The notes: a model not told the origin generated them from the sequence alone. Counted from the first letter of the stretch, positions 1,497 to 64,000 are shown. The stretch is DNA of 64,000 nucleotides from an uncultured Actinomycetes bacterium (GCA_963806155.1 CAWDXC010000011.1:129819-193818), one strand, 5' to 3'. Numbers and translations: made by a program.

Positions 1497-1515
1497 GAAA
1501 GGAAGCGAGTGGACC

Positions 1516-5056: not shown

Positions 5057-5082
5057 CTTCTTCATCGACTAAGGGAGCCTAG

Positions 5083-6381: not shown

Positions 6382-6580
6382 AATAGGATATGGATTGAAA
6401 AGGCGCAGTAATTAGGATATCTTGGGGGCGACCGCCTGCAGGTCCTAATGGACGTGGCGGGTTCGACGGCCTGTGGCTCGGGCTTCCCGCCTCGACATCG
6501 CATCGCAAAGCGGCGGGCATTGCGAGCGTCAACGCCAGCGTGGATCGCGCAGGACTGACTGAGCAAGGGAGACCGGAATC

Positions 6581-14920: not shown

Positions 14921-15131
14921 TGAACGATCCCCGGTGCGCCGCGCCTTCGCGCGTCGACACACGGCGCTTCCAACCGCTCGCTCGACCGTGTCGTGCCCAA
15001 AGCGACAAGCCCACATACCATACGGCCTGGTCACATCAAGGCTCTCGATCTATTCCCCCGGTTCGCTGCGTGACGAGGGTGGGGATTGAAGCTCGTTGAA
15101 TCAGAACCGCGAGAGACTAGGAGGGGCCACC

Positions 15132-19694: not shown

Positions 19695-19744
19695 ACAGCG
19701 AGGATTTCATGTCGGATGTGCTGAACGAGGAGCAGTCAGATGCG

Positions 19745-28690: not shown

Positions 28691-29015
28691 CCTGGTGAAT
28701 GGCACGGTGCCCCCCTTTCTCGTGGATAGCCGCAGCCGCTCCCTCGGTCTGCCAGCGAATCCGCGTGCCCCCATAAAGCTCTCAGTCACGTTCGACTGCT
28801 GGCGTCCCGAGGTTGTTCCCAACAGCACCAGACCATGTTACTCCTCGCCTGGACGTCACCATGTGTGCATCGTGTCTGCTCTGGTCGCCCGGGGTGCCCG
28901 AGGAATCCCCGGCGAGGTACGATTGGGTCTACATCTGGATGTAGCTCCAACCGCAAGTGACTCGACTCCCGCGCTACACGAGCTCTGGTGCCAACTGCAA
29001 CGAGGCGATCCCTAA

Positions 29016-33443: not shown

Positions 33444-33488
33444 ACACGAACGCCACCAAGTGACACGGGCAAGAGCCCGATCGATCCG

Positions 33489-41841: not shown

Positions 41842-41978
41842 TTCAGGCCCTCACTCGCGCTCTGGTGACGGGGTCGCTCGTGGCGCCAGGGGCGAGGCTG
41901 ACGCAGCCGCGCTGCCCGCGCCGGCCATGCCGACTACGTCGTTCGACGCGCTCGCACACGCCATGCCGACCGCGCCGC

Positions 41979-43169: not shown

Positions 43170-43464
43170 CGGCGTAGTCTCCTTCGGGGGTCATGGTTAT
43201 CGCCCCTTTGGGGCACTCCCGGGCGCAGACGCCGCACCCCTTGCAGTACTCGAGATCGGCCTTGTAGTGGATGCCGTCCTTGTCGTCACCGATGCACTGG
43301 ATCGGGCAGTAGATATAGCAGAACCCGCAGGCGTTGCATTTGTCCTTGTCGAAGACGGGCCGCTCCGTGCGCCAGTCACCCGTGTGCAGGCACAGCAGGA
43401 CGCCGCTCGCATCGGACCAGCTGGCCTCGGTCTCGAAGATGTCCTGGGGCTCGGTATCTACCAT
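43150..43464 (-). CDS. porD: 2-oxoacid:ferredoxin oxidoreductase delta subunit (2[4Fe-4S] ferredoxin)
   Basis: CNACGFCYIYCP and CKGCGVCARECP motifs. ATG at 43464. The ORF-track N-terminal extension lacks support. Confidence 0.75.
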   Translation of the reverse strand: MVDTEPQDIFETEASWSDASGVLLCLHTGDWRTERPVFDKDKCNACGFCYIYCPIQCIGDDKDGIHYKADLEYCKGCGVCARECPKGAITMTPEGDYADDCRVG

Positions 43465-44012
43465 GTCGTCACTTCCACTTCCTCGTAGCCGCGCTCGACG
43501 TTGCGGATGTTCCTTTTCAGCATGTCGCCCTCCAGATAGTCCCCCAGCCCTTTTAGCGCCGAGTCCAGCCCAACCCAGCCGGTGACCCGGGCCAGCGCGC
43601 CGACAAGGCATGTGTTGGGGATGTCGCGGCCGATCTCGCAGAGGGCTATCGATGTCGCGTTGACGATGCCCGCTTTCTTGAGATTCGGGTGGGGCTGACT
43701 GTCCAACGGCTTCGCCCGGTTGAGGATGAGCACTCCCTCGGGTTTCAGCCCGTCGAAGAGGTTCTTGAGGGTGAGGAGGGTCGGGTCGATGACGACCAGG
43801 CAGTCAGGCGTATAGATCTGGGTCTTCTCGCGGATGGGTTGGTCGTCGAAGCGGGTGAAGGCCACCACCGGCATCCCCCGCCGCTCGAACCCGTACATGG
43901 GGAAGCTGGCCACGTATTTGCCCTCGGCCGCACAGGCCGAGGCCAGCATCCTCGCGGCAAGCACGGCCCCCTGCCCTCCACGGCCGTGGAAGCGGATCTC
44001 AGTCGCAGACAA
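43458..44012 (-). CDS. porG: 2-oxoacid:ferredoxin oxidoreductase gamma subunit
   Basis: IRFHGRGGQGAV N-terminus. 184 aa. Overlaps porD by 7 nt. Confidence 0.75.
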   Translation of the reverse strand: MSATEIRFHGRGGQGAVLAARMLASACAAEGKYVASFPMYGFERRGMPVVAFTRFDDQPIREKTQIYTPDCLVVIDPTLLTLKNLFDGLKPEGVLILNRAKPLDSQPHPNLKKAGIVNATSIALCEIGRDIPNTCLVGALARVTGWVGLDSALKGLGDYLEGDMLKRNIRNVERGYEEVEVTTW

Positions 44013-49012: not shown

Positions 49013-49590
49013 TCTCGTCTCCTCTCGGGGATTTCCTATGGGTCAGACCATTCCTGACCTGAGCCCATGAGCTGGTCGATTTCTTATCATACCGCCGGGT
49101 TGCCCTCATTCGTGAAGGCCCGCGGCGGGGAGGATGCTCGGATCCGGCAGTGGTTCCGCTCAAGCTATAAGGCACCTCTACGCGTGCGCGGCTTGGCCGA
49201 TCATCGGAGGCTAGCAGTTGACGAAGGGAATGGACGGTTGCCCGAGAGTAGAGCGTCTTGCGCGAGACGGGCCTGGGTTCACTATCGGATCTTCACCACC
49301 TTCACTCTATGGTCCTCGTTCCCGAACGGGCATTCTTGCTCAAGAGGGCGGTGATCCTTGATGCCGGGTGTGGCGCGCCAGGGTTGCCCGTGAGGCCATT
49401 ACTCTGCACACCATTACTCTGCAACATTCTGCCAACGCTTTGCCAACGAACCGCCCAGAACGGGTCGTCATGGGATCGCTGTATGAGAATCCTCCGCGTC
49501 TTCTTGACTGGTACCGCGAAACGCCGAAAGGCAGGAGCCTCAGTTCTGCTGTACCCTGGTGCGGAAGAGGCGCCGATAGGGAGGTACAGA

Positions 49591-50637
49591 GTGCGCGCAG
49601 TAATCCTCGAAGAAGACGAACAGATCCATGTCGCCGATGTTCCGGATGCTCGGCTGAAGGAGGAATCAGACGTTCTGGCGCGCGTGACGCTTGCCGCCAT
49701 ATGCGGGACCGACGTGCACATCAAACATGGTGGCCTACCCGGCATTGAGCCCGGATCGATCCTTGGACACGAGTTCGTTGGGGTCGTTGAGGAGGTAGGG
49801 TCCCGTGTCCGGCGGTTCCAGGTCGGAGATCGAGTCGCATCGCCCCCAGCTCTCTGGTGCGGGACCTGCGCGGCTTGCCAGTTATCCGTCCTGCAGAACT
49901 GTTCGCAGTTGTCCATGTATGGCGGAGGTCCGTTCCTGTCTCCGATGGGTCTCGACGGGGTCCAGGCGGAACTGGTTCGGGTTCCCAACGCCGATCTCGT
50001 ATTGACCCCTATCCCGGCGAGCGTCCCGGACGAGCAGGCGCTCCTGGTCGTCGACATGCTCCTGACCGGCTACCACGCTGCCAACGAGGCGAAGATCAAG
50101 GTGGCGGACACGGTGGCCGTCTCCGGCTGCGGCCCCGTCGGCCTGTGCGCCATCCTCGCCGCCTGGCAACACGGACCGAGCCAAGTCTTCGCCATCGACC
50201 TTTTCGACAATCGTCTTGCCCTGGCCGAGCGCTACGGCGCGATCCCGATAGACATCCGGAAAGGCGACCCCGTTCAGCAGATACTTGCGGCCACCGGTGG
50301 GGAAGGCGTCGGTGTGGTCCTTGAGGCCAGCGGCAATACGGACGCATTCTTGAACGCCACGCGCATGATCAAGAAGTACGGCACCATCTCCTGCGTGGGA
50401 CTGTTCGCCCAGCCAGTGGAATTCCCGGTGCAGGAGCTTATCTTCCGGGGAGTGAAAGTGGTCATGGGTCTAGGTAATCTCGTACATGTCCCCAAGCTCA
50501 TGAAGCTGGTCGAGCACGGGCGGGTCGACCTCGGGGCCATCGGGACACACACTTTTGCGCTCGAGGAGGCCGGTCAAGCCTACGACCTTTTCGAGCATCA
50601 CAAGGATCTCTGTCTGAAGGTGTTTCTGAGACCGTGA
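49591..50637 (+). CDS. Zn-dependent alcohol dehydrogenase (MDR superfamily)
   Basis: GTG at 49591 with RBS GGGAGGT. CGTDVH and GHEFVG catalytic-Zn motifs, structural-Zn Cys motif C..C..C, and a GCGPVG Rossmann motif. 348 aa. The ORF track extends upstream to 49258 without support. Confidence 0.75.
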   Translation: MRAVILEEDEQIHVADVPDARLKEESDVLARVTLAAICGTDVHIKHGGLPGIEPGSILGHEFVGVVEEVGSRVRRFQVGDRVASPPALWCGTCAACQLSVLQNCSQLSMYGGGPFLSPMGLDGVQAELVRVPNADLVLTPIPASVPDEQALLVVDMLLTGYHAANEAKIKVADTVAVSGCGPVGLCAILAAWQHGPSQVFAIDLFDNRLALAERYGAIPIDIRKGDPVQQILAATGGEGVGVVLEASGNTDAFLNATRMIKKYGTISCVGLFAQPVEFPVQELIFRGVKVVMGLGNLVHVPKLMKLVEHGRVDLGAIGTHTFALEEAGQAYDLFEHHKDLCLKVFLRP

Positions 50638-50870
50638 CGATATGCTGGACGAGACCCCTGCTCTAGTTCGTGTCTGGCAGTTCACCTCAGCACTATCTCC
50701 CTGGCAATAGCGGGAGAGGGAGAGAGTCAGGAAGGCCACATGAATATGTAGATTCGTCTCAAACCACGCTTGCGCAATGACCGTTGGAAGGGATACAGTT
50801 CGGTACGAGGGTCCGCCAATCCGGCCGGCCCTTTGGGGGCTCACCGAGCAGAACGCAAAAGGGGGAAGCA

Positions 50871-52196
50871 ATGAGGAAAGCGTTGATCCTGGGACTGGTG
50901 CTGGTGTTCGCCCTTACCATGGGGCTGGTCGCCTGCGCCGAAGAGGAAGCGACTACCACCACCGCAGCTGGCGAAACCACCACCACCGCAGCTGGCGAAA
51001 CCACCACGACCGCAGCCGCCGAGACCACCACGACCGCCGCCGGGGCCACAAAAGACAAAGTACTCATAGGGTATGTGGACGCGTTCACAGGTGTGTTCGC
51101 GCCGGGTCCGCAACTATGGGGAACCATCTGGTTCGAAGCCCTCATCGCCGACTACAATGCCGCCGGAGGGCTCTACGTTCCGGAGTACGGCAAGAAACTG
51201 CCCATCGAGCTGATCAAGTACGATTCAGCAAGCGACACGGAGACACTGATCAGGCTCACCGAGAAGGCTATGACCGAGGACAAAGTCGACTTGATGATAT
51301 CTCCGTGGGGAACGTCACAGAACTTCGCCGTCTATTCGCTCTATGAAAAATACGAGTACCCGGCTATTCAGCACGCCATGGGTAGTGGTCAAATAGTCGA
51401 CCTTATCCAAAGTGGCGGAGCACAATGGGCGTTCCCGGTACTATCCCAGCCGCCCTATGGGGCCAAGCAGGCGGCGGACCTCATGCAGGCGAATGGGGCG
51501 ACCAACATAGGGATCATTGGCATAAACGACCTGCACGGCATAGAGTGGACCGGGCGGTTACAAGCGGAGCTGTCAGCAAGGAACATGCCGGTCGCGGTGG
51601 GGCCTGAGCTCTACCCGCTGACGGTCACGGACCTATCGCCCATAATCAAGAAGCTTCAGGAAGCCAACGTGGATTGTCTGTGGGCTTCCACCTATCCGGC
51701 TGACGGCACCCTGCTGGTGCAACAGATGATGGAGCTTGGCTATTCTCCAAAAATAATGTTCATGGGCCCGGGGGCTCAGTATCCATTGGTGATGGTGCCG
51801 ACATTCGGAGTTCCCGCTCTGACAGGGATCATGGAATACCATGGATTCGAAGTAGACTTCTACACATCGCCCGACTTGATGGCGCTTGCCGAAAAATACA
51901 AGGCGGCAGCAGGCGGGTGGCCTGGCGCAAACACCATAGCAGCCTATGTGAGCTATGAGGCGCTCTTCAAAGCTGTGGAAGAAGTCGGCCTCGACAGGGT
52001 GAAGATCAGAGACGCCCTCAAGACCGAAACATTCGAGACGGTGCTTGGGCCTACGAAGTGGAACTGGGAAGACGTTCGCCTGGAGGCCCCCGCCGCTGGT
52101 GACATCTGCCAGTGGCAAGGCAAGGACATGTTGCAGGTAGTCTGGCCAGCAGATAAGGCTAGTGCCGCCTGGATTCCGAAACCTGCTTGGCCGTAA
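50871..52196 (+). CDS. ABC transporter substrate-binding lipoprotein, Liv-type
   Basis: Signal peptide and lipobox LVAC, a (TTTTAAGE)n linker, then a Peripla_BP_6-like body. ATG at 50871 with RBS AAGGGGGAAG. Confidence 0.8.
   Translation: MRKALILGLVLVFALTMGLVACAEEEATTTTAAGETTTTAAGETTTTAAAETTTTAAGATKDKVLIGYVDAFTGVFAPGPQLWGTIWFEALIADYNAAGGLYVPEYGKKLPIELIKYDSASDTETLIRLTEKAMTEDKVDLMISPWGTSQNFAVYSLYEKYEYPAIQHAMGSGQIVDLIQSGGAQWAFPVLSQPPYGAKQAADLMQANGATNIGIIGINDLHGIEWTGRLQAELSARNMPVAVGPELYPLTVTDLSPIIKKLQEANVDCLWASTYPADGTLLVQQMMELGYSPKIMFMGPGAQYPLVMVPTFGVPALTGIMEYHGFEVDFYTSPDLMALAEKYKAAAGGWPGANTIAAYVSYEALFKAVEEVGLDRVKIRDALKTETFETVLGPTKWNWEDVRLEAPAAGDICQWQGKDMLQVVWPADKASAAWIPKPAWP
50952..51047 (+). 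repeat. Four tandem 24-nt repeats encoding the TTTTAAGE linker of the lipoprotein
   Basis: ACCACCACCACCGCAGCTGGCGAA repeated four times with progressive divergence. Confidence 0.5.
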
Positions 52197-52229
52197 AGCG
52201 GGTCACCCCGGGAATATGTCGTGAGTATC

Positions 52230-52261
52230 GTGGTACTCCACACCTAGCTGTGGAGTACCAC
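52230..52261 (+). promoter_or_regulatory. Perfect 13-bp inverted repeat (GTGGTACTCCACA-N6-TGTGGAGTACCAC) between the binding-protein and permease genes; intrinsic attenuator/terminator or regulator operator
   Basis: Seen directly in the sequence. Lies 34 nt after the lipoprotein stop and ~90 nt before livH. Confidence 0.4.
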
Positions 52262-52350
52262 CTCAACACCAGTGGCTTTGTCAGGCCGTAGCCCGGCCAT
52301 TAGTGACCTAGCGGATATTCTCCCATCACTCAGAAGCGTGGAGTAAGTCA

Positions 52351-53232
52351 ATGTCCCCACAAGTCGTTCTAGACATCACTATCGGCGGAGCACTTCTGGG
52401 CGCGGTCTATGCACTTGTTGCGGTGGGCCTCAATCTGGCATATGGGGTTACACGGATACTCAATGTAGCCCACGGCGATTTTCTGATGATTGGGGCCTAT
52501 CTTACCTATTTCTCCGTTACTCTCATTGGTCTGAACCCGTATACTTCCATATTGATAATAGGACCGTTTATGTTTTTGGTCGGCTTTCTAGTCTATATGA
52601 TAATGCTTCGCAGAGTTGTCAAATCTTCCCAATCAGGAGAAGAACTTGAGTTCCGTTCCCTTCTTTTGTGTTTTGGACTTTCGTTTGTTATTCAAAATCT
52701 GGCCATTGTTATGTGGACCGCCAACTATCGAGGTTATGAAGTACCTTCGTTGGGAATGGTTGAGATTTTTGGCGTCGCTTTTGAAATGAATCGCGTCATC
52801 ATTGCTGCGGTGTCAGTTTTTATCAATTTGCTTCTATATCTATTCTTGCGGTTCACGAAAGCGGGGATAGCTATGAGAGCCACCGTTGATCAGCCAGTCG
52901 GGTCTCAGTTGGTCGGAATCAACGTCTATAGTATTTGTGCTCTTTCGTTCAGTCTGGGCATCCTGTTGGCTGCGTGGGCCGGCAATCTGATAAGCGTCGT
53001 GTCTTCGACCATCAGCCCCTTTATGGGAGGGCCCTATACTCTTATCGCCCTGGTCCTGGTGATTCTGGCCGGCGTTGGGAGTTTCAAGGGCAATATCGTT
53101 GGAGGGCTGCTGATCGGCTATCTCTCCTATATAACGTTGAGGGTTATAGATCCCGCCCTCACGCTTGTGGTCGTTTACGCGGTGCTTATCTTGGCCCTCT
53201 TGATTAGGCCCAAGGGCCTTTTCGCAAGGTAG
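52351..53232 (+). CDS. livH: Branched-chain amino acid ABC transporter permease (LivH-type)
   Basis: 293 aa, multi-TM, typical BPD_transp_2 pattern. Noticeably lower GC (~46%). Confidence 0.8.
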   Translation: MSPQVVLDITIGGALLGAVYALVAVGLNLAYGVTRILNVAHGDFLMIGAYLTYFSVTLIGLNPYTSILIIGPFMFLVGFLVYMIMLRRVVKSSQSGEELEFRSLLLCFGLSFVIQNLAIVMWTANYRGYEVPSLGMVEIFGVAFEMNRVIIAAVSVFINLLLYLFLRFTKAGIAMRATVDQPVGSQLVGINVYSICALSFSLGILLAAWAGNLISVVSSTISPFMGGPYTLIALVLVILAGVGSFKGNIVGGLLIGYLSYITLRVIDPALTLVVVYAVLILALLIRPKGLFAR

Positions 53233-53260
53233 CCGGGTGAGATCTTTGACTGGTGCAAAG

Positions 53261-54148
53261 ATGTCATCGCTTTTGAAGTTTAGTCCCTTTGCTCTTTTTG
53301 TGGTACTAGCATTCGCGCCGCAATTGGCGAGTACTTACTACGTTTCCTTAATTACAAGTGTATTGGTGTGGGTCGGGTTAGCCGTTAGCTGGCATTTTTT
53401 TAGTGGGACCACTAAATATGTTTCGCTGGGTTCTGCGGCTTTCTTTGGAGTAGGCGTTTACGTAACAGCGAATCTTAGTGGTCGAGTGCCATTTATCGCA
53501 GTTCTCGTCGTTGCGGCCGCCATAAGTTTCGTCTTCGCTCTGGGTGTGGGTCTGGCTACTTTGAGGTTGAAGGGCGTATATTTTGCTATAGCTACTTTCG
53601 GGCTTGCTGAACTGCTTAGTAATGCCTTTACTTACTGGGAGCAACAGGTTACCGGTACGCGCGGAAGGTTTATCGCATCCATTGACGTTTATTACTATAT
53701 CTTAGTGATAACGTTCATCATAATAGGTGTCTTGGTCGTGTTAAGACGGGCGAAGCTTGGTTTAGGGTTGAAGATGATAGGACAGAGCGAAGAAGCGGCT
53801 ATTCATTATGGTGTTAATACCACGAGATATAAGGTCCTGGGGTTTGCCGTCAGTAGCATGTTCATGGGGGTATTGGGGGCGGCGTTTGCGCCTCGATGGG
53901 GATATGTTGACTCTGGAATGGCTTTTAGCACCTTATACTCTTTTATGCCTGCTATAATGACTCTTTTGGGTGGGACGGCGACGATTGTAGGACCTATTGT
54001 TGGAGCGGTAGGACTGTCGTTGATACAGGAGTGGTTGCTGACGACGTTTAAAGACTACTTTTTGATTATTCTGGGGGGAATAATGATCGTCATTATCTTG
54101 GCCCTGCCGGAGGGCATTACCGGGAGGCTGGCAAAGAAGAGATCCTGA
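53261..54148 (+). CDS. livM: Branched-chain amino acid ABC transporter permease (LivM-type)
   Basis: ATG at 53261. Multi-TM. Low GC. Confidence 0.75.
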   Translation: MSSLLKFSPFALFVVLAFAPQLASTYYVSLITSVLVWVGLAVSWHFFSGTTKYVSLGSAAFFGVGVYVTANLSGRVPFIAVLVVAAAISFVFALGVGLATLRLKGVYFAIATFGLAELLSNAFTYWEQQVTGTRGRFIASIDVYYYILVITFIIIGVLVVLRRAKLGLGLKMIGQSEEAAIHYGVNTTRYKVLGFAVSSMFMGVLGAAFAPRWGYVDSGMAFSTLYSFMPAIMTLLGGTATIVGPIVGAVGLSLIQEWLLTTFKDYFLIILGGIMIVIILALPEGITGRLAKKRS

Positions 54149-54219
54149 GCAGCTGTGGCTATCGGCAGGCGCGTGAAAGGGTTTCCTGTGCAGAGTTTTG
54201 CTGGGGTGAAAGGTGAGCC

Positions 54220-54954
54220 GTGAAGCTACTCGAGGGGATAGACGTCACAAAGCATTTTGGAGGCCTTGCTGCGCTTCACAAGGTCAGTTTTCACGTAGGT
54301 GAAGGCGAGATCGTCGGTCTAATAGGGCCAAATGGGGCGGGAAAGACCACACTGTTCAACGTTGTAGCCGGTACGTTCCCGCTCACCTCCGGCGCCGTGA
54401 GGTTTCAGGACCAGGATATTACCGCCTTGAAACCTCATAAGATCTGCAAACTGGGGATCGCGCGTACCTTTCAAATACCGAAACCGTTCCCTCGCATGGA
54501 CGTCTACGAGAACGTTTACGCGGTGTCCATCTTTGGCCATGACAAGAAGAAAGGAACCGCTTACACGAGGTCGGAGATCGATCACCTACTCGAGACATTT
54601 GGGTTGGCGGAGAAGAGGTCAACCCTTGCCTCGAACCTATCGGTATTCGAGTTAAGGATGCTTGAAATCGCGAGAGCCCTTGCCACCAGGCCGAAGCTCT
54701 TGCTGCTGGATGAGGTGATGGCTGGGCTGAATCCCACAGAAACGTCGCAAATAAGCGATATTGTCCGCAAGTTGCGTGAGGACGGTCTTACGATTCTGAT
54801 GATCGAGCACAACATGCGGGGAACAATGGGCGTATCGGACCGACTTATTGTGCTGGACCAGGGCATGAAGATAGCCGATGGAAGACCCGAAGAGGTATGC
54901 AGAGCTCCTCGGGTGGTAGAGGCATATTTGGGAGAGGCCTATGTTGCAAGTTAG
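54220..54954 (+). CDS. livG: ABC transporter ATP-binding protein (LivG-type)
   Basis: Walker A GPNGAGKTT, signature LSVFELRMLEIARAL, Walker B LLLDEVMAGL. GTG start with RBS AAAGGTGAG. Confidence 0.8.
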   Translation: MKLLEGIDVTKHFGGLAALHKVSFHVGEGEIVGLIGPNGAGKTTLFNVVAGTFPLTSGAVRFQDQDITALKPHKICKLGIARTFQIPKPFPRMDVYENVYAVSIFGHDKKKGTAYTRSEIDHLLETFGLAEKRSTLASNLSVFELRMLEIARALATRPKLLLLDEVMAGLNPTETSQISDIVRKLREDGLTILMIEHNMRGTMGVSDRLIVLDQGMKIADGRPEEVCRAPRVVEAYLGEAYVAS

Positions 54955-55645
54955 GAATGTAGATGTGATGCGTGGAGGTCTGCAGGTCCTCTGGGATATT
55001 TCGTTAGAGGTAGAAAAGAACGAGATTGTAGCTTTGATTGGTTCCAATGGGGCTGGCAAAACAACTCTTTTAGGCACCTTGGTAGGTTTGTTTAAACCAT
55101 CGGCCGGAAGTGTTTGGTTTAGCGACAAAGACATATCGGGGTTACCTCCACACAAGTATGTCAATTTGGGCATATCGTTTGTACCTGAGGATAGGAAGCT
55201 GTTTTCAAATTGTCTGGTCCGGGAGAATCTAGTATTAGGCGCATACAGTTCTAGGGCTAAGAAGCGAACAAAGGTAATGTTAGAAGAAATGTATGAGCTT
55301 TTCCCGATCGTGAAGGAGCGAAAGGATCAGCTTGCTGTTACCTTGAGTGGTGGCGAGCAAAGGATGTTGGCCATAGCGCGAAGTCTGATGTCGAGTCCAG
55401 ATTTGTTGATACTGGATGAGCCTTCGCAAGGACTATCGCCGCTGATGTCGCTTGAGGTGTTCAGGACCTTGGAGAAGCTGAAAGAGCGCGATATCAGCAT
55501 TTTTGTGGCAGAACAGAACGTGGCTCATGCCCTGAGGTTTGCCGACCGCGCCTACGTAATGGAAACGGGGAGGGTGACTTTGCAGGGAAAAAGCTCGGAA
55601 CTACTGGGAAACGACCTTGTTCGGGAGGCTTTCTTAGGTTGTTAG
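54941..55645 (+). CDS. livF: ABC transporter ATP-binding protein (LivF-type)
   Basis: Walker A GSNGAGKTT, signature LSGGEQRMLAIARSL, Walker B LILDEPSQGL. Overlaps livG by 14 nt. Confidence 0.8.
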   Translation: MLQVRNVDVMRGGLQVLWDISLEVEKNEIVALIGSNGAGKTTLLGTLVGLFKPSAGSVWFSDKDISGLPPHKYVNLGISFVPEDRKLFSNCLVRENLVLGAYSSRAKKRTKVMLEEMYELFPIVKERKDQLAVTLSGGEQRMLAIARSLMSSPDLLILDEPSQGLSPLMSLEVFRTLEKLKERDISIFVAEQNVAHALRFADRAYVMETGRVTLQGKSSELLGNDLVREAFLGC

Positions 55646-55687
55646 AAACCAGAATGAGGAGGATTTCGATGAGCAGGGAGGGTTTCA

Positions 55688-57826
55688 ATGGGAAGTGAAC
55701 CGGAGAGCCGCTACTATTGTTACACCGATGCGGGTGGTACTTTCACCGACACGCTGCTGATCGACCAGCGGGGCGCTATGTGGAGCGGAAAGGCGCCTAC
55801 CACTCCTGCATCGCTCGACGAAGGCCACATAGCCTCCATCGAGGCTGCCCTCAGCGGGTTGGGCATCACTATGGAAGAGCTGCTCTCCCGGTCGGAGGTC
55901 ATTGCCTTCGGCACCACAGCCATCATCAACACGATCGTTCAGCGGTCTGGTGCGAGAGTGGGGGCGCTCATCACCAAGGGTTTCGAGAGGGTCCCCTCCA
56001 TAGGAAGGGCCTCCCAGAACTACAGCGAGTACAGCTGGAGCGACATCCTCCATTCGGCTACCCACCGCCACCTCGAAGACCTCGTCCCCTACCTGGACAT
56101 CATAGGGGTCACCGAGCGGATCGATGCCAACGGCAAGGCCTTCATCCCCCTCTATGAGCACGAGGTGCGAGAAGGGGTCAATAAGCTGATCGACAGGGGG
56201 GTGGAGTCGATCATCATCCTCTTCCTCTATTCGTATATGGACCCGAGCCACGAGCTCCGGGCCAAGGAGATCGCGGAAGAGGTCATCAAAGAGCGGGGAG
56301 CGGACATCCGGGTCTTCACGAGCTACGAAGTCAGCCCGACTATGAAGGAGCTCAGCCGGTTCAACACCCTGGCCGTGGAAGCATACGCAGGAGGGATCGC
56401 GAGGAAGTCCCTGGCCAAGTCGGAAGACCGCCTGATGAAGCTCGGCGCCAAGACGAGACTTCAGGCCACTCTGTCCCACGGGGGACTGATGCCGGCAGCG
56501 CATGTCCTCATGGTCGATACGGCCATGTCGGGGCCGGCGGGGGGCATCCTCGGCGGGAAATACCTGGGCGATGTGTACGGGTATAAGAACATCATCACCA
56601 GCGACGTGGGCGGGACCAGCTTCGACGTGGGTCTCATCACCGGGGGCAGGATCAACATCAAGACAGAGCCCATAGTGGCCCGTTTCATCCTGGCCGCGCC
56701 TTGCGCGGAGGTCACCTCCATCGGCGCCGGCGGGGGCACGATCGCCTATCTCGATCCCTTCACCAACAGGCTGAAGGTGGGCCCGCAGAGCGCCGGATCC
56801 GTCCCCGGCCCCGCCTGCTACGGGATGGGCGGAGAGAACCCCACGGTCACCGACGCCGACGTTGTGTTGGGGTATATCGACTCCGACTACTTCCTGGGCG
56901 GGAGGATGAAGCTGGACGGGTCCCTGGCGGAGAAGGCCATCAAGGAGAAGATCGCTGACCCCTTGGGCTTAAGCGTCATAGACGCCGCCACCGGCATCAA
57001 GGAGATCATCGACGCGGAGATGGAGAACTACTGCCGCAGCCTGATCAGCACCCGGGGATACGCCGTGGAGGACTACGTGCTCCTGGCCTTCGGCGGCGCC
57101 GGGCCCACCCACGCGGCCGGATACACCAAGAACACCAAGTACAAAGAAGTGATCATCACCCCCTTTGCCTCGGTCTTCTGTGCCTTCGGGGGGGCGACGG
57201 CGGACTACAGCCGCCAATACCTTAGAGCCACCCGTGTCTTCATCCCGTACATGGCTGACGAGGAGACCAAGAAGAGGCATGCACAGACGCTCAGTGACCT
57301 CTGGGCCGACCTGGAAGCGGTTGCCAAAGAAGAGATGGCAGCGGCCGGTTTCAACCTCAAGGAAGTGGAGTTCGAGCACCTGGCCTTCACTCGCTACGGA
57401 GGCCAGCTCGACGAGATCGTCTTCAGATCACCCCATGCGAGACTCAAGGACGCTCAAGCGCTGGACGACTTCGTGGATGCTTTCGAGACGGAGTACTCAA
57501 GCGTCTTTACTGCCACAGGCAAGTATCCCCAGGCAGGCTATCTCACCCAGCACGTGGGTCTTGTGGCTAAGGTGGCCAAGCCCAAGCCGGTGATCGCTGT
57601 CAAGACGAAAGCCAAATCCGACAACCCGGGCTTCAAAGGCACCAGGACGGCCGTGTTCGATCGAAAGCCCTCGAACACCGAGGTATATGAGATGTCGCAG
57701 TTGTCACCGGGACAGCGGGTGCAGGGACCGGCCATCATCGAGCACATCGATACTACAGTCGTGGTGCCGCCCGAGTGCCACGTGGACGTGGATCAGTATG
57801 GAATGCTTTTCCTAAGGAGGGCGTAG
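55688..57826 (+). CDS. Hydantoinase-A-family subunit of an acetone/acetophenone-carboxylase-like enzyme (AcxA/Apc-like)
   Basis: 712 aa. YCYTDAGGTFTD N-terminus. RBS GGGAGGG. Second hydantoinase A paralog in the window. Confidence 0.8.
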   Translation: MGSEPESRYYCYTDAGGTFTDTLLIDQRGAMWSGKAPTTPASLDEGHIASIEAALSGLGITMEELLSRSEVIAFGTTAIINTIVQRSGARVGALITKGFERVPSIGRASQNYSEYSWSDILHSATHRHLEDLVPYLDIIGVTERIDANGKAFIPLYEHEVREGVNKLIDRGVESIIILFLYSYMDPSHELRAKEIAEEVIKERGADIRVFTSYEVSPTMKELSRFNTLAVEAYAGGIARKSLAKSEDRLMKLGAKTRLQATLSHGGLMPAAHVLMVDTAMSGPAGGILGGKYLGDVYGYKNIITSDVGGTSFDVGLITGGRINIKTEPIVARFILAAPCAEVTSIGAGGGTIAYLDPFTNRLKVGPQSAGSVPGPACYGMGGENPTVTDADVVLGYIDSDYFLGGRMKLDGSLAEKAIKEKIADPLGLSVIDAATGIKEIIDAEMENYCRSLISTRGYAVEDYVLLAFGGAGPTHAAGYTKNTKYKEVIITPFASVFCAFGGATADYSRQYLRATRVFIPYMADEETKKRHAQTLSDLWADLEAVAKEEMAAAGFNLKEVEFEHLAFTRYGGQLDEIVFRSPHARLKDAQALDDFVDAFETEYSSVFTATGKYPQAGYLTQHVGLVAKVAKPKPVIAVKTKAKSDNPGFKGTRTAVFDRKPSNTEVYEMSQLSPGQRVQGPAIIEHIDTTVVVPPECHVDVDQYGMLFLRRA

Positions 57827-57829
57827 GCG

Positions 57830-59971
57830 ATGGGTGAACTGAAAGAGCGCATGCTGAGAAGAGAGGAAGACCTGGCGCAGGGCAGGTACCCGTCCCTGGA
57901 ACTGCATGAGCAGGACACGATCAAGTGGGAGGTCCTGTACACCCGCCTCCTCGGCATCGTGAACGAAGGCAGGGAGACCGGCCGCCTGATCAGCGCCTCA
58001 CCCACTGTGCGGGAGTTCGGTGAATGCGTCTTTTGCGTGTTTAGTCCCGAAGGGGACTGTGTGGCCTTCTCGAGAGGCATCCTGCTTCACTTCGCCAGCT
58101 TCCAGGCCACCGTCAAGTGGATGCTCGAAAACGACTACGAAGAAGATCCGGGGATCAGAGACGGCGACATCTTCTGCAACAACGATCCCCAGATCGGCGG
58201 GGCTCACTCCGCCGACGTGGCCACCATCATGCCGGTGTTCTATAAGGACAGGCTCGTGGCCTGGGTGGGGGGGCTCACCCACGTCATGGAAGTGGGGGGG
58301 ACCGAACCCGGTGGGACCTCCCCCTCCGCACTCAGCCGCTACGATGACGGCTTGATGTTCCCGGCTCAGAAGGTCGGCGAGAACGACAAGTTTCACAAGT
58401 TGTACCACCTCAACGTGGACCGGAACACGCGGGACAGCAAGTGGTGGATCATTGACGACCTGGCCAAACTCGGCGGCTGCACGAAGATGAAGAAGGCTCT
58501 CGTCGACCTGATCGACGAATACGGGATCGACTACTACGAGAAGGCTGTCTACGAGATGATCGAGGAGGGAAGGCGCTTCGCGATCAACAAGATCAAGACG
58601 GTCTTGTTCCCGGGCAAGTACCGCACGGTGGACTTCTACGATGTTCTCAACGCCGAGCAGCCCGTGCGGTTCCAGAAGAACTACTACGTTCACGAACCAC
58701 TGGAGATCGCGGTCACGAAAAGCGGAGAGCTGACGGTCGACTACGACGGGAGCAGTTCCCCTGGGTACCACGCCAACAATGCCTCCCTGATCTGCGCCAC
58801 GGGACTTCACATCTACCAGGTGCTCCAGGAAGTGCTCTATGACGGTCTGTTCAATGCCGGTGTAGTTCAGGCACTGAAGTTCAACTTCCCGCAGAACTGT
58901 GTGCTCAACCCGGATATCCAGTACGCGTGTTCCTGCTGGGCCACAGCGATGACAGCGGCGGGCGGCAGCTTCCAGCGGGCGCTCTCGCGGGCCTACTTCG
59001 CCAAGGGCTTCCGGGAAGAGGGGTTCGCTAGTAAGGCCATAACCGCCTCCGTGTTCGCCGGCGGGGTCGACGAGAACGACAGGATGTTCTCGGTGGCCAA
59101 CTTCGAGATGAACTCCTCCGGCGCCGCGGCGCAGAGCAACAAGGACGGACTGGATGCCTCGAACTCGGTGTGGAATCCCGAGGCGAACCTGTCGGATATC
59201 GAGCCCTTCGAGCCCATCTGGCCGCTAAAGTGGCTGGGGCGAGGGGTGCAGACCGATGGGGGCGGGTACGGCAAGCACCGGGGAGGGGCAACGATCACTT
59301 CTCTGTACGTGATCGAACCGCCGATCAAGTTCGTCGAGTCCGGGACCTTTCAAGGTGGCGACAAAGCGTTCGTCTCGCCAGGGACCATGGGTGGATACCC
59401 TGCCCCGACACGGTACCGCTACACGCTGGTGGATACGAACTTCGAGGAAGCGGCCCGGCAGCAGTTGCCGCTTCCCCACGACGAAGGCGATCCTGCCAAT
59501 CCTGACTTTGCCCGGCTCCTGAAGGGGACCTTGAAGAGAACCCCGGGGCAAAGCGCGAGCGTACAGTTCAAACGGTATGACGTGATCCATAACACGTCCG
59601 GCGGCGGCGGCGGTTGGGGCGATCCGCTGGAGCGGTCCCCGGAGATGGTGGTGCAGGAGCTGAATGAAGGGCTCACCTTCCCGAAAACGGCCGAGACGGT
59701 CTATGGTGTGGCCACGAAGAAGACCGACGATGGCCTTCTTGCCCTCGATGCGGAGAAGACAGCCACACTGAGAGAGAAGATAAGGAAGAACCGCCTGAAG
59801 AAAGCCGTCCCCACCAAAGAGTACCTGGCCAACGCGAGGAAGGACGTGGTCGAAGGCGATTTCGTACCCGTTGTCAAGGAGATGTACAACAACTGCTTCA
59901 ACAACTCTCCTCGATTCTTGAGGGAATACCGAGAGTTCTGGAATCTCCCCGACACCTTTGTCGGGTTCTAG
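57830..59971 (+). CDS. Hydantoinase-B-family large subunit (AcxB/Apc-like)
   Basis: 713 aa, longer than a classical HyuB. RBS AAGGAGG. Starts 4 nt after the upstream stop. Confidence 0.8.
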   Translation: MGELKERMLRREEDLAQGRYPSLELHEQDTIKWEVLYTRLLGIVNEGRETGRLISASPTVREFGECVFCVFSPEGDCVAFSRGILLHFASFQATVKWMLENDYEEDPGIRDGDIFCNNDPQIGGAHSADVATIMPVFYKDRLVAWVGGLTHVMEVGGTEPGGTSPSALSRYDDGLMFPAQKVGENDKFHKLYHLNVDRNTRDSKWWIIDDLAKLGGCTKMKKALVDLIDEYGIDYYEKAVYEMIEEGRRFAINKIKTVLFPGKYRTVDFYDVLNAEQPVRFQKNYYVHEPLEIAVTKSGELTVDYDGSSSPGYHANNASLICATGLHIYQVLQEVLYDGLFNAGVVQALKFNFPQNCVLNPDIQYACSCWATAMTAAGGSFQRALSRAYFAKGFREEGFASKAITASVFAGGVDENDRMFSVANFEMNSSGAAAQSNKDGLDASNSVWNPEANLSDIEPFEPIWPLKWLGRGVQTDGGGYGKHRGGATITSLYVIEPPIKFVESGTFQGGDKAFVSPGTMGGYPAPTRYRYTLVDTNFEEAARQQLPLPHDEGDPANPDFARLLKGTLKRTPGQSASVQFKRYDVIHNTSGGGGGWGDPLERSPEMVVQELNEGLTFPKTAETVYGVATKKTDDGLLALDAEKTATLREKIRKNRLKKAVPTKEYLANARKDVVEGDFVPVVKEMYNNCFNNSPRFLREYREFWNLPDTFVGF

Positions 59972-59993
59972 GGAGAAGAAGGAGAGAAAGACG

Positions 59994-60459
59994 ATGGCGA
60001 CAAGAAAGACTGCTTGGTCCAAAGACGTCCTTCGCGATCTCACCGACGGGAACCTTGACCTGCCGGTCCTTTTGGAGATGCAGCGGGGTGACAAGGAAGA
60101 TGACCGCTTCGAGGCGATCCTGGCGGTAGAGCAGGAGAAGGTCGGATGGCCAGAAAAGATCCTCGTGCCTATCGGTGAACATCTCTTCGTGGTGGAGAAG
60201 GGAGCCGACCGGGTCGTGAAGTGCAGTTGTGGCAATGAATTCGGCGACTACCGGCAGAACTGGAAACTGAACGCAGCCGTGTATGTGCGGGACACCGAAG
60301 AGAGTCTGGACGAGATTGTACCCGGGTCCCAGAAAGTGCGACGTCACCTGGATGGGCCTCAGGGAGTTCTACTGCCCGGGCTGCGGCACACTTCTTGAGA
60401 TAGAAGCTGTGCCGCCGGGCTATCCCCTGGTCTTCGACTTTCTACCGGAGCTTGACTGA
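59994..60459 (+). pseudogene. Acetone-carboxylase gamma-subunit-like small Zn-binding protein with a +1 frameshift near 60318
   Basis: RBS GAAGGAGAG-N6-ATG. Frame A gives …VKCSCGNEFGDYRQNWKLNAAVYVRDTEESLDEI, then drifts to a stop. The +1 frame gives …YPGPRKCDVTWMGLREFYCPGCGTLLEIEAVPPGYPLVFDFLPELD*, a plausible Cys4 zinc-site C-terminus. Confidence 0.55.
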
Positions 60460-60485
60460 GTCGTCCGGTAGGAGAGGTGAGCGCC

Positions 60486-61399
60486 ATGGAAAAGGTGATC
60501 GTCACCTGTGCCATAACCGGCGGTGCGTCCCCGGCGGGTAATCCCTATCTGCCGAAGTCACCGGCTGAGCAGGTGACCTCGGCCGTAGAGGCCTTCAATG
60601 CGGGGGCCTCGGTGATCCACATACATGGCAGGAATCCTGAGACAGGGATGGCGGACGCCGACGCCCGCTTCATAGCGGACGCCGTTGCACCCATCAAGCA
60701 GCAGTGCCCGGGAGTGATCATCAACGTGTCGACCGGGGGCTCGGGAAAACGCTACGACGGTGACCATCTGTTCGAGGAGAACCCCAAGGAGAGCGTCAAG
60801 GGCAGGATCTCGGTCATAGCCGAACTGTCCAAGCGACCCCGAGACGAAACCCGACCTGGCGTCGTTCAACGCCGGGTCGCCGGTCATCGACATCTACAGC
60901 CGCAGCCAGAAAGACTGGCTCCTGAAGTTCGTGATGGTGCACACCTTCAACGACATGGCCTACATGGCCCAGGTCATGCAGGAGTGCGGGGTAAAGCCTG
61001 AGTTCGAATGTTATGACGTGGGGATGATCAACAACGTGCTCACCCTGAAGGAACTGGGGTATGTAAACGATCGCCGCTCTACTTCCAGTGCGTTATGGGG
61101 GTGATGGGGTGTATCCCGGCGACGCCGGACAACTTGTTGCACATGGTCCGGCAGATACCCAAGGAATACCCTGGTCGGTATGCGCGGTGGGCGCGGCCGA
61201 ATACCCCATGGTGACCATGGGCCTGGTCATGGGTGGCAACGTCCGGGTGGGATTCGAAGACAACATCTACCTGAATCCCGGCGTCCCGGCCAAGTCGAAC
61301 GCCGAGATGGTGGAAAAAGCCGTCAGGCTGGCCAAAGAGCTGGGACGAGAGATCGCCTCCCCGGAGGAGGCGCGCGCGATCCTGGGATTGGCCGGCTGA
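60486..61399 (+). pseudogene. Beta-keto-acid cleavage enzyme (BKACE/DUF849; 3-keto-5-aminohexanoate cleavage enzyme family) with three frameshifts
   Basis: N-terminus MEKVIVTCAITGG…PEQVTSAVEAFNAGASVIHIHGR is in frame 0. The middle (DPETKPDLASFNAGSPVIDIY…) is in +1 from ~60826. A further segment ([34 protein letters not shown]) follows ~61071. The C-terminus ([34 protein letters not shown]…[11 protein letters not shown]) follows ~61176. Confidence 0.65.
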
Positions 61400-61497
61400 T
61401 AGGGGACTGACACGGTGGGGCGTCGTCCGCCGGTGAAAGGTGGGCGGCGTCCCCACTGTCTCGGTTCGTCATAGACGAAGGGAGGAGCGAGATCGAA

Positions 61498-62416
61498 ATG
61501 TCCAGTTTCTTCAACGTAGCCATGGTGCAGATCACGTGCGACCTCACAAATGGAGATCTCGAGTCACGTAAAGTCGCACAGATAGCCAAGATCGACCGGT
61601 ACTTTGACACGGTTTTGAACATCAATCCAACCGTCGATCTCTTCGTCCTTCCTGAGACCCCTGTCTCCGGCTACGATCTCGCCAATTGGGCGAGGCTTGC
61701 AGAGACCATCCCGGGTCCCACAAGTGACTACTTCTGCCAGAAGGCGCGAGAGATGGGCAAGTGGATCTGCCCCGGCTCGATCATAGAGAAGGTAGCCGGC
61801 TCCGATGACACCCGCAACACAGCTCTGCTCATATCGCCGGCCGGCGAGATTGTCATGAGAGATCAGCAAACGCTTCGTACCCTACCCCTTCGAGACGGCC
61901 GTACGAGGGAACGAGTTTCCCGTGTTCAGCATCCCTGGCGTGGGCAAAGTCGGCATCATGAACTGCGCTGACACAGCGGTTCCTGAAGTGGCGCGCAATC
62001 TGGCCTTCAACGGAGCTGAGATCATAGTCAACGTCCTCTGCCAAGGCATCTTCATCGGTGGTCTTCGCCACCGTGTTCCAGTCACTCAGGTCAGGGCTAC
62101 AGAGAACCAGTGCTATGTCGTGGCGGTGAACCAGGCGGCTCCCGAGGGCATGGGGCACTCCACTATCTGCGATCCGGAGGGTCGGGTTCTTGAGGAGTTA
62201 GAAGAGGCGGAGTCGTTTGCGGTTGTGTCGCTGAACCTGGAAGAGGTACGACGGGTCCGAGAGTTCGGCTCGTTCGGTTGTCGCGTTCGGTTTCTCAACC
62301 TCACCCGGGATTGGCAGGTGCAGGGAGGGGCGCTGGATGCGTGCTATCGTCGGGGACTGGAGAACGCACCGGTCTTTGACAACCAGTCTGGCCCGGCTCC
62401 CCAGGAAGGCCGATAA
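61498..62416 (+). pseudogene. Carbon-nitrogen hydrolase (nitrilase superfamily) with one frameshift near 61865
   Basis: N-terminal part to …LISPAGEIVM is in one frame. …RFVPYPFETAVRGNEFPVFSIPGVGKVGIMNCADTAVPE (catalytic Cys in MNCAD) is in the next frame. RBS GGGAGGAG. Confidence 0.6.
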
Positions 62417-62579
62417 GATCACAGCCTGCTCATCTCGGCTATCAGAGATGCGAACCCGGTCGTGTTCCTGTAACACAAGATGCTCCATGCGCTGAAGCGG
62501 GGGTCCCTGAGGGCGAAGATGAGTGGCTTAGCGCGGACTGCCTGCCGCGCCTCGCGTTATGGAGAGGGGGCCCAGGAGG

Positions 62580-64000
62580 ATGTCTCAACCGTTATCGCTC
62601 GAAAAGGCGGGCAGCGTCTCTGCTCTGATAGCAGCCTCAATAGCGGCGGGCAAGACGGCCCTGGACGAATGGGAGTCTAAGATGCTTCTCGCCGCCTACG
62701 GCATCCCCGTACCCGATGGGGCCCTGGTGACGAGCGAAGCGGAGGCCGTCGAGGCAGCAGCTCGGATAGGCGGCCGAGTGGCCATGAAGGGCATCGCGTC
62801 GGAGATCCACCACAAGACCGAGGCCGGCTTGGTCGTCCTCGGCATTCTAGGTCGCAAGATGGTGGTGGAAACGTACCGACAGCTGGAGAACCGGGCAACT
62901 GGCGCGATCCGCGGAGTGCTTGTCGAGCAGATGCTCGTGAGTAACCGGGAACTGATGGTGGGGATGAAGCGTGACCCCGCATTTGGGCCGGTGGTGGCGT
63001 TCGGGTTGGGCGGGGTGCTGACCGAAGCGCTTGGCGATGTGGTGCTGGCTCTCGCCCCCCTTGGTGAGCGTGACGCCGAGGAGCTTCCGGGGTTGATCCG
63101 GGCCCAACGGCTGCTCGGACCTTTCCGTGGCTATCCGGCAGTCGATAGGGGGGCGCTCGCGAAAGTCGTCCAAGTTATCGGGCAGATAGCCCTCGACCAC
63201 CCCGCGATCGCTGAGATAGATATCAACCCGCTGCTCGTTCACGGGGACCAGCCGGTGGCGGCGGACGCACTGGTCATCCTAGCGCAGCTGGCGGGGCCTG
63301 AACCTAAGAAAAGCTCGTTCGTTCCCAACATGAAAGCCCTGCTCGCCCCGCGCTCCGTAACAGTCGTGGGTGCGTCCAGCGATATTGCCAGGTGGGGCGG
63401 GTCCGTCCTTCGCTCCATCCTCGACGGGGGCTACACTGGCAAGATCTACCCGGTCAGCCCTAAGGGCAGCGAGTTCTTCGGGCTTCAGTGTTATCCCAGC
63501 ATCGAAGCGTTGCCCGAGGTCCCCGATCTCGCTCTGCTGGCGGTGGGCGGCCATCAGATTGCTCCCACGCTGGAACAATGCGGCCGCAAGGGTATCCCGG
63601 CCGCTGTAGCCATCGCCGCCGGCTTTTCCGAGACCGGGGAGGCCGGAGCCGAGGCCGAGCGCGAGATAGCCCGGATCGCCATCGAGCATGGAGTCACTCT
63701 CATCGGCCCCAACTGCATGGGGCTAGTCTCCAACGAGAGTCAGCTCCATGCCATAGGCTTCATCGTGACGCATCCGAAGAAGGGCAGATTAAGCGTGGCT
63801 TCTCAATCGGGCAACATCGGAGTGCAGATCGTGAAAGCGTGTGAACGGCGGGGAATAGGCCTTGAGAAGTTCATCAGCGTGGGTAACGAGGCCCAGGTCA
63901 CTGCCATGGATGCCCTCGACTATCTGCGGGACGATCCTCATACGGAATGCGCGATGCTGTACCTGGAAGGTGTGGACGACGGTCTCCAGTTTCTCCGCTC
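62580..64000 (+). CDS. NDP-forming acyl-CoA synthetase (acetate--CoA ligase family: ATP-grasp domain followed by CoA-binding/ligase domains), extends beyond the window
   Basis: Open frame from ATG 62580 (alternative ATG 62559) to the window end. ATP-grasp segment …SKMLLAAYGIPVPDG…, then CoA-binding VTVVGASSDIARWGGSVLRSILDGGYTGKIYPVSPKG and …IGPNCMGLVS…. Confidence 0.7.
   Translation, partial: MSQPLSLEKAGSVSALIAASIAAGKTALDEWESKMLLAAYGIPVPDGALVTSEAEAVEAAARIGGRVAMKGIASEIHHKTEAGLVVLGILGRKMVVETYRQLENRATGAIRGVLVEQMLVSNRELMVGMKRDPAFGPVVAFGLGGVLTEALGDVVLALAPLGERDAEELPGLIRAQRLLGPFRGYPAVDRGALAKVVQVIGQIALDHPAIAEIDINPLLVHGDQPVAADALVILAQLAGPEPKKSSFVPNMKALLAPRSVTVVGASSDIARWGGSVLRSILDGGYTGKIYPVSPKGSEFFGLQCYPSIEALPEVPDLALLAVGGHQIAPTLEQCGRKGIPAAVAIAAGFSETGEAGAEAEREIARIAIEHGVTLIGPNCMGLVSNESQLHAIGFIVTHPKKGRLSVASQSGNIGVQIVKACERRGIGLEKFISVGNEAQVTAMDALDYLRDDPHTECAMLYLEGVDDGLQFLR

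Follow-up and report, generated by a model that had tools for sequence, protein, structure and literature searches.

In this work we describe a gene cluster at positions 55688-64000 of a 64,000-nt stretch of DNA from an uncultured Actinomycetes bacterium (GCA_963806155.1, CAWDXC010000011.1:129819-193818; the whole stretch is hereafter the window), in which the genes of a predicted three-subunit ketone carboxylase are directly followed by the gene of a cleavage enzyme for beta-keto acids (BKACE). The window was characterized by open reading frame (ORF) listing, three-frame translation and Pfam scans, and every component named in the original prediction for this DNA was recovered at or near the place where it had been put. 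The genes at the center of this report are the following:

55688-57826, plus strand: hydantoinase-A-type nucleotide-binding subunit (HydA; equivalent of acetone carboxylase beta, AcxA), 712 amino acids, intact
57830-59971, plus strand: hydantoinase-B-type catalytic subunit (HydB; equivalent of acetone carboxylase alpha, AcxB), 713 amino acids, intact
59994-60459, plus strand: acetone-carboxylase gamma-like Cys4 zinc subunit (gamma), 154 amino acids as reconstructed, with a 1-base (+1) insertion, the extra G at 60318
60486-61399, plus strand: BKACE, 304 amino acids as reconstructed, with three frame changes (+1 near 60840, +2 near 61074 and -1 near 61172)

These genes lie close together, with intergenic gaps of 3, 22 and 26 nt from HydA through HydB and gamma to BKACE. 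The identities originally proposed for the cluster stood, but the gamma, BKACE and downstream CN-hydrolase genes are not intact as written, due to frameshifts that had gone unmentioned, and their domain matches were obtained on reconstructed reading frames.

At the domain level, HydA matched Hydant_A_N, Hydantoinase_A and Hydant_A_C (the central domain with 271 bits), HydB matched Hydantoinase_B (287 bits), and the reconstructed gamma matched Acetone_carb_G (122 bits). When the three subunits were searched against all PDB sequences, acetone carboxylase was the best match for each of them. HydA scored 508 bits to acetone carboxylase beta, followed by 425 to 5l9w_B (the 732-amino-acid hydantoinase-A-type chain of acetophenone carboxylase, deposited as 'gamma subunit'), with caprolactamase (323) and N-methylhydantoinase (274) behind; for HydB, the score was 476 bits with acetone carboxylase alpha, compared with 182 for acetophenone carboxylase delta, 96 for N-methylhydantoinase and 84 for the B subunit of caprolactamase; and gamma scored 133 bits to the gamma subunit of the Xanthobacter autotrophicus enzyme (XaAC) and 38 to the small subunit of acetophenone carboxylase. 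Furthermore, the CxC...CxxC zinc motif is retained in gamma, aligned with that of XaAC. In the alpha subunit of XaAC, manganese is coordinated by Glu89, His150, Asp153 and His175, with His111 nearby (PMC5543143; PMC10865871); Glu89, His111, His150, Asp153 and His175 align with Glu65, His87, His126, Asp129 and His151 of HydB, which are identical residues and display no variation across a 23-sequence alignment of the HydB clade. Taken as sequence-based predictions, these results support an acetone-carboxylase-type alpha-beta-gamma architecture for 55688-60459, set apart from the plain hydantoinases and the oxoprolinases. The expectation that 59994-60459 would be AcxC-like, with HydA and HydB placed apart from N-methylhydantoinases and oxoprolinases, agrees with the PDB scores, and the comparison with both the Acx and Apc (acetophenone carboxylase) operons favors AcxABC.

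The H/D/H metal triad was dropped as a proof of carboxylase identity, since a plain hydantoinase-B encoded at 33489-35282 carries it as well. Conservation of the triad would thus reflect predicted catalytic competence rather than carboxylase identity, and what sets the carboxylase apart is its gamma subunit, together with the ranking of its similarities. That other hydantoinase-B (597 amino acids, 24% identity to the carboxylase catalytic subunit, of plain hydantoinase/oxoprolinase type) belongs to a second hydantoinase pair in the window (31359-35282, plus strand), together with a 694-amino-acid hydantoinase-A-type protein and without a gamma.

The AcxABC systems of X. autotrophicus and Aromatoleum aromaticum (PDB 5M45 and 5SVB) share with the window the gene order hydantoinase-A, hydantoinase-B and small Cys4 gamma, and by alignment the Mn ligands, His111 and the four gamma cysteines are identical; their catalytic subunit is of 776 amino acids, compared with 713 in the window. 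Canonical acx operons pair with genes for a CoA-transferase and a thiolase, not with a BKACE. Unlike those loci, the window carboxylase is followed by a BKACE, and its substrate is probably not acetone. HydB belongs to a clade of proteins of approximately 713 amino acids found only in metagenomes (50-98% identity), next to which stands a small group at 41-42%, and the remaining acetone-carboxylase-type matches (35 database homologues beyond this clade and group) are only 34-40% identical. No acetone-carboxylase model was present among the NCBIfam hits for the cluster proteins, and none of these proteins received an equivalog-level NCBIfam name. By these comparisons the carboxylase would constitute a separate clade and not a close orthologue of the characterized acetone carboxylases, two of which are 68% identical to each other (PMC10865871). 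Regarding Apc of A. aromaticum (PDB 5L9W), the likeness lies in membership of the ATP-dependent carboxylase superfamily and in a small Zn subunit; its methyl ketone substrate is larger than acetone, and its product, benzoylacetate, is the type of beta-keto acid that a BKACE could cleave. Apc cannot do without a second hydantoinase-A paralogue and an epsilon subunit (PMC5214803). Identity with acetophenone carboxylase was rejected, as 55688-60459 contains one hydantoinase-A gene and no epsilon or extra subunits, so that the alpha, alpha', beta, gamma, epsilon architecture is absent, and the NCBIfam scores were far under the respective cut-offs (ApcC 448/1500, ApcA 244/1250, ApcD 187/1500 and ApcB 35/250 bits).

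The gene directly after gamma is a BKACE, as had been proposed, by both its Pfam match and its conserved catalytic residues. The frame-corrected sequence matched PF05853 over its full length with 306 bits (gathering score 24.8), a match that is split over three frames in the DNA as written. The residues His46, His48, Ser82, Glu143, Arg226, Glu230 and Asp231 of Kce (PDB 2Y7D), an enzyme in which two His and one Glu are the Zn ligands and Ser82, Glu143, Arg226 and Asp231 are catalytic, are identical in the aligned BKACE. Its best PDB match was the uncharacterized protein 3LOT. Among NCBIfam models, all scores were under the cut-off: 245.6/382 bits for Kce (NF052387), 233/430 for triacetate acetoacetate-lyase (TAL; 3,5-dioxohexanoate:acetyl-CoA acetone transferase; NF053538), and 182/350 for 3-oxoadipate:acetyl-CoA acetyltransferase. 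At the specificity position, which corresponds to Glu14 of Kce, the window protein has Ala14, and the TAL of Clostridium scatologenes (CsTAL) has Trp16 (PMC10470551). Both specific identities were rejected on score and residue together, namely Kce by its 245.6 bits and by the replacement of the substrate-amine-binding Glu14 by Ala, and TAL by its 233 bits and by the presence of Ala and not Trp. The protein is thus a predicted active-type BKACE, judging from its residues, and neither Kce nor TAL. The chemistry expected to be common with the Kce of lysine fermentation and the TAL of phloroglucinol degradation is the conversion of a beta-keto acid and acetyl-CoA to an acyl-CoA and acetoacetate.

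In order to place the cluster among its relatives, related loci (designated here by L numbers) were collected from exact-protein look-ups, a species-representative genome scan and a metagenome scan, and compared with the window by tblastn. The exact look-up of the window HydB gave no contig, and the genome that carries the window is absent from the GTDB representatives; its best matches suggest an actinobacterium of the Thermoleophilia/Gaiellales. After de-duplication by HydB nucleotide identity, 13 distinct lineages were recognized at a HydB amino-acid identity of at least 75%. Eleven of these reach past gamma (window/L018, L001, L002, L004, L008/L026, L009, L010/L027, L012, L022, L024 and L029), and all 11 display HydA, HydB, gamma and BKACE in intact order, with a BKACE of the same subfamily (81-94% identity) immediately behind gamma; in the window itself, the BKACE is frameshifted as written. 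Conserved synteny with a BKACE, the point on which the original prediction had staked itself, was found in each of these 11 lineages. Gamma is intact in L018 and in all other relatives, and intact orthologues exist for BKACE and CN-hydrolase as well. The link extends to distant carboxylase clades: in L030 (65%) and L016 (52%, Syntrophomonadaceae), BKACEs of other subfamilies (32-37% identity) lie right after gamma, and in L006 (55%, Pseudomonadota), an other-subfamily BKACE lies two genes upstream. By the same tblastn comparison, no BKACE was found beside the distant carboxylases of L007, L015, L031 and L033. Judging from these gene arrangements, the association of carboxylase and BKACE is recurrent, and was apparently put together more than once. 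The bins carrying the module are labeled Gaiellales, Thermoleophilia, Syntrophorhabdales or Syntrophorhabdaceae, and one of them comes from peatland (SPRUCE). As to these labels, the HydB sequences of L011, from a 'Chitinivibrionia' bin, and L012, from a Syntrophorhabdaceae bin, are 100% identical, so at least one of the two labels is wrong, and 'Chitinivibrionia' is the doubtful one.

The module is embedded in a longer co-directional array on the plus strand, from an alcohol dehydrogenase to an acyl-CoA synthetase, which is preceded by a gene on the opposite strand:

46433-49012, minus strand: AthL-like molybdopterin enzyme (pyrogallol hydroxytransferase large-subunit family; Pfam AhtL-like_1st, Molybdopterin and Molydop_binding)
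49258-50637, plus strand: zinc-dependent alcohol dehydrogenase (Zn-ADH; MDR family; Pfam ADH_N and ADH_zinc_N), with the true start probably near 49594
50784-55645, plus strand: Liv-type ATP-binding cassette (ABC) importer, complete, five genes, with orthologous sets in relatives
50784-52196, plus strand: importer binding protein (Pfam Peripla_BP_6)
52351-53232 and 53237-54148, plus strand: importer permeases, 71-73% identity to BPD_transp_2 genes of L002
54220-54954 and 54941-55645, plus strand: importer ATPases, 71-73% identity to ABC_tran genes of L002
61498-62416, plus strand: CN-hydrolase (nitrilase superfamily, amidase-like; Pfam CN_hydrolase), with a +1 insertion near 61861
62580-64000, plus strand: NDP-forming acyl-CoA synthetase, ATP-grasp domain first, 473 of approximately 740 amino acids, the gene being cut by the window end

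A consensus scan detected no terminator-like site on the plus strand after 53393, and the promoter and terminator scan as a whole yielded nothing above chance. The complete uptake system that had been placed just upstream of the carboxylase is confirmed, with its binding protein, two permeases and two ATPases, and orthologous five-gene sets (68-88% identity) adjoin the carboxylase module in L002, L008/L026, L013 and L023, L010 having a distant analogue. The dehydrogenase neighbor varies, being the Zn-ADH in the window and a short-chain dehydrogenase/reductase (SDR) in L002, L022 and L024; the Zn-ADH obtained sub-threshold NCBIfam scores only (e.g., 166 bits for threonine 3-dehydrogenase), and its position makes it a candidate for producing either the ketone or the beta-keto acid. 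For the downstream enzyme, the specific label 'nitrilase' did not hold: the reconstructed protein matched the superfamily domain (CN_hydrolase, 112 bits), is amidase-like, and scored below every curated NCBIfam cut-off (best hits aliphatic amidase with 85/427 and formamidase with 79/406 bits; archaeal nitrilase 59/500). The CN-hydrolase was also rejected as a core member of the module, as only L022 and L024 have an orthologue, the other loci having a replacement or nothing; unrelated amide hydrolases recur, L002 having another type of CN-hydrolase and L010 an enzyme with the amidase signature. The gene at 62580 encodes an NDP-forming acyl-CoA synthetase by its domain content (ATP-grasp_5, CoA_binding_2 and Succ_CoA_lig, with the C-terminal part beyond the window); it is 64% identical to a 738-amino-acid homologue in L021, and all substrate-specific NCBIfam models scored below their cut-offs. 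In the window, L022 and L024, the BKACE is followed by the CN-hydrolase and then by this synthetase; at that position, L010 has an acetoacetate-CoA ligase (TIGR01217, 813 bits versus a cut-off of 521) with homologues in L001 and L029, and in L016 the module is followed by 3-oxoacid CoA-transferase A and B subunits.

With the integration of these findings, we propose that the cluster is a conserved catabolic module in which an ATP-dependent ketone carboxylase and a BKACE act in series, a reading to which we assign a probability of roughly 45%. A polar precursor would be taken up by the Liv-type system and, perhaps aided by the neighboring dehydrogenase or amide hydrolase, turned into a methyl ketone, R-CO-CH3; the carboxylase, with ATP and bicarbonate, would convert this ketone to the beta-keto acid R-CO-CH2-COO-, and the BKACE, with acetyl-CoA, would cleave the latter to R-CO-SCoA and acetoacetate, the acyl group being activated without a separate CoA ligase. 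The acetoacetate would in turn be activated by the NDP-forming acyl-CoA synthetase in the window, and by the acetoacetate-CoA ligase or the 3-oxoacid CoA-transferase in relatives. The BKACE step would achieve no net change on acetoacetate formed from acetone, and the model therefore predicts an R group larger than methyl. Such a serial order would explain both the tight linkage of gamma and BKACE and the presence of acetoacetate-activating genes. We infer that the carboxylase feeds the BKACE from gene order only, and a parallel arrangement fits the same data.

Several observations weigh against the serial reading. For all members of the group, the predicted coupling is drawn from gene order; the H/D/H triad, being also present in the hydantoinase-B without gamma, is not by itself a sign of carboxylation; and the Liv-type importer together with the recurring amide hydrolases hints at a polar, possibly nitrogen-containing substrate that the methyl-ketone model leaves unexplained. 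An 89%-identity BKACE in L021 has no adjacent three-subunit carboxylase, its neighbors being a CoA-transferase, an aminotransferase, an amino-acid dehydrogenase, a 2-oxoacid:ferredoxin oxidoreductase and an acyl-CoA synthetase, and BKACEs of 67% identity in L019 and L020 (contigs of 8.2 and 3.3 Mb) are accompanied only by an ABC system and a 3-hydroxyacyl dehydrogenase; therefore, the BKACE subfamily does not depend on the carboxylase. Moreover, five indels are packed into 1.55 kb of the locus with none in the 4.3 kb upstream, a clustering that could mean real decay. The units of L019 and L020, which follow a carnitine-type logic, have the Liv-type ABC system in common with the window and no carboxylase, whereas in our proposal for the window carboxylation, and not oxidation of a 3-hydroxy acid, would supply the beta-keto acid. 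These self-contained units are in turn an argument for the two enzymes acting in parallel, an explanation that we regard as the main alternative, possible though less probable than the serial one. In a parallel arrangement, a true acetone carboxylase would recapture the acetone lost from acetoacetate by spontaneous decarboxylation, while the BKACE would use another beta-keto acid, its substrate being derived from an imported 3-hydroxy acid via the neighboring dehydrogenase; acetoacetate would be the common product, activated by the adjacent ligase, transferase or acyl-CoA synthetase. The recurrence of a dehydrogenase as neighbor, the fact that no accessory genes are more consistent than those for acetoacetate activation, and the best match of all three subunits to acetone carboxylase would fit such an arrangement. 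Conversely, the low identity of the catalytic subunit to the 35 database homologues outside its nearer groups contrasts with that between characterized acetone carboxylases, canonical acx operons do not carry a BKACE, and the juxtaposition of gamma and BKACE in all 11 lineages, with the independent recruitment of other BKACE subfamilies, exceeds the linkage usual for a shared product. A further explanation, which we consider very improbable, is that HydA and HydB form an ATP-dependent hydantoinase or lactamase opening an imported cyclic amide, the downstream CN-hydrolase acting as a carbamoylase or amidase and the BKACE being incidental. The fold is indeed common to N-methylhydantoinase, oxoprolinase and caprolactamase, some Liv-type binding proteins bind amides or urea, and amide hydrolases of the types described above adjoin the module in the window, L022, L024, L002 and L010. 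These hydrolases, however, are non-orthologous between loci and missing from several, while the BKACE is invariant; the catalytic subunit scores approximately 5 times higher to acetone carboxylase than to hydantoinase or caprolactamase; and the module has a dedicated Acetone_carb_G gamma, for which the matched PDB hydrolase entries (caprolactamase and N-methylhydantoinase) have no matching chain.

The frameshifts raise the separate question of whether the locus in this organism is a decaying pseudogene cluster, with a module that would be non-functional here whatever its role elsewhere. We hold this to be unlikely, and consider the five indels to be probably assembly or sequencing errors rather than true inactivation. 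The reconstructed gamma, BKACE and CN-hydrolase each match an intact orthologue end to end in a single tblastn segment: intact gammas are present in L018, L004, L008 and L009, intact BKACEs in L004, L008 and L009 as well as in many database proteins of up to 94% identity, and an intact 293-amino-acid CN-hydrolase at the same position in L024. In L018, the nearest relative (95.6% nucleotide identity), the extra G of 60318 is absent and gamma is intact. The ratio of nonsynonymous to synonymous substitution rates (dN/dS, Nei-Gojobori) was 0.053 for gamma (window versus L018) and 0.055 for BKACE (window versus L004), within the range of intact-intact pairs, and the window BKACE displayed the lowest dN among all pairs; low dN in the presence of five indels means that there is no neutral substitution load, and therefore an artefact is likelier than decay. 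Neither premature stops by substitution nor large deletions accompany the indels, and L022, the closest long syntenic locus compared (81% nucleotide identity over 6.7 kb), has other frameshifts, in HydA and CN-hydrolase, with its acyl-CoA synthetase called as two genes; independent frameshifts elsewhere in the sequence are expected of indel-prone assemblies. Against this, all five indels fall inside 60318-61861, with none in the coding sequence on either side (4.3 kb and 1.4 kb), they lie mostly outside homopolymers, and one of them is a 2-base insertion; mobile-element remnants and further split genes occur in the window; and divergence from L018 climbs from approximately 2-3% to approximately 10% where the indels start. 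This last comparison, over 60050-60620 and with L018 from JGI sample 3300061209, places the change from the 2-3% seen across HydB at approximately 60050, and the rise is nearly all synonymous (dS of 0.10 versus 0.48). The jump suggests a recombination or strain-mosaic boundary coinciding with the start of the indel cluster, and together with the clustering itself makes a very recent real decay possible.

At least two other genes of the window are split in a similar manner, which also counts toward an artefact. The SIMPL (DUF541) gene at 27856-28828 (minus strand) consists of two overlapping ORFs in different frames, whose halves match consecutive parts of the profile. The major facilitator superfamily (MFS) gene at 36427-37663 (minus strand) likewise consists of two overlapping ORFs in different frames, both of which match profile positions 2-186, in keeping with the repeated halves of this family. 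The cluster is thus not the only place in the window with frameshifts. A serine recombinase lacking the start of its resolvase domain (17694-18776, plus strand) and an HTH_32 transposase-like ORF (19456-20562, minus strand) look like mobile-element remnants inside a catabolic island. In the stretch with the ABC permease and ATPase genes (52001-56000), the G+C content drops to 0.49-0.52, compared with approximately 0.60 elsewhere, with a strong negative AT skew, which could be a membrane-protein codon effect or a sign of foreign origin. Upstream of the cluster, subunits of a 2-oxoacid:ferredoxin oxidoreductase are encoded at 40918-44012 (minus strand; POR_N, TPP_enzyme_C and a gamma-like ORF), and L021 joins a similar oxidoreductase with a CoA-transferase, the 64%-identity acyl-CoA synthetase and the 89%-identity BKACE. 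Further genes, all on the plus strand, at 13961-14920, 15096-16352, 22759-23799 and 228-8101, comprise a MerR-TetR fusion regulator, two Amidohydro_2 proteins, two FAD_binding_2 proteins and a CCG/FAD_binding_4 pair, the Amidohydro_2 family being one that includes hydroxybenzoate decarboxylases. As a whole, the window has the look of an island for the catabolism of aromatics or polyphenols.

The original prediction had also linked the BKACE, through TAL, to the AthL-like enzymes of the window, and this link was upheld in part. In L001, L012, L022 and L029, the module is flanked by orthologues (55-70% identity) of the AthL-like gene at 46433-49012, which there have BthL-like neighbors and, in L001, L012 and L029, FmdE-like ones too, and L022 also carries a DAPG-hydrolase-family gene; the BKACE itself, however, is not a TAL by either score or residue. 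In the window, neither of the AthL-like enzymes, at 8991-11615 (plus strand) and 46433-49012 (minus strand), has an adjacent BthL-like Fe-S subunit. A more specific version of the proposal, which we judge rather improbable, is that carboxylase and BKACE form a new route in anaerobic polyphenol or polyketide breakdown, with a methyl ketone derived from an acylphloroglucinol or from phloroglucinol-type ring cleavage. Candidate ketones for such a route would be acetylacetone, the spontaneous decarboxylation product of triacetate, or an acetyl-substituted phenol; the ketone would be carboxylated at the expense of ATP and the beta-keto acid passed straight to CoA by the BKACE, so that a leaking intermediate would be salvaged and activated without a ligase. 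The AthL/BthL-like transhydroxylase genes of the four loci and the DAPG-hydrolase-family gene of L022 would be included in this polyphenol route.

In line with the original prediction, for which no described pathway with a carboxylase feeding a BKACE was known, none was found in the searchable literature, which leaves most subscription papers outside: no paper paired acetone carboxylase with BKACE, DUF849, 'keto acid cleavage enzyme' or 3-keto-5-aminohexanoate, none contained '3-keto-5-aminohexanoate cleavage', carboxylase and hydantoinase together, and those naming both phloroglucinol and acetone carboxylase treat the two separately. Likewise, the NetSyn preprint on the genomic context of BKACEs makes no mention of hydantoinase or carboxylase. 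Thus, although both enzyme families are known, their conserved pairing is real and apparently undescribed. The intact orthologues in L004, L024, L009 and L010 constitute a defined set that makes the pairing testable. If the two enzymes do act in series, a methyl ketone would be converted to an acyl-CoA and acetoacetate without a CoA ligase or thiolase, which would represent a new entry of ketones into central metabolism. The module occurs in uncultured Thermoleophilia/Gaiellales and Syntrophorhabdales, and as AthL-like enzymes are frequent neighbors, it may also bear on the anoxic turnover of polyphenols.

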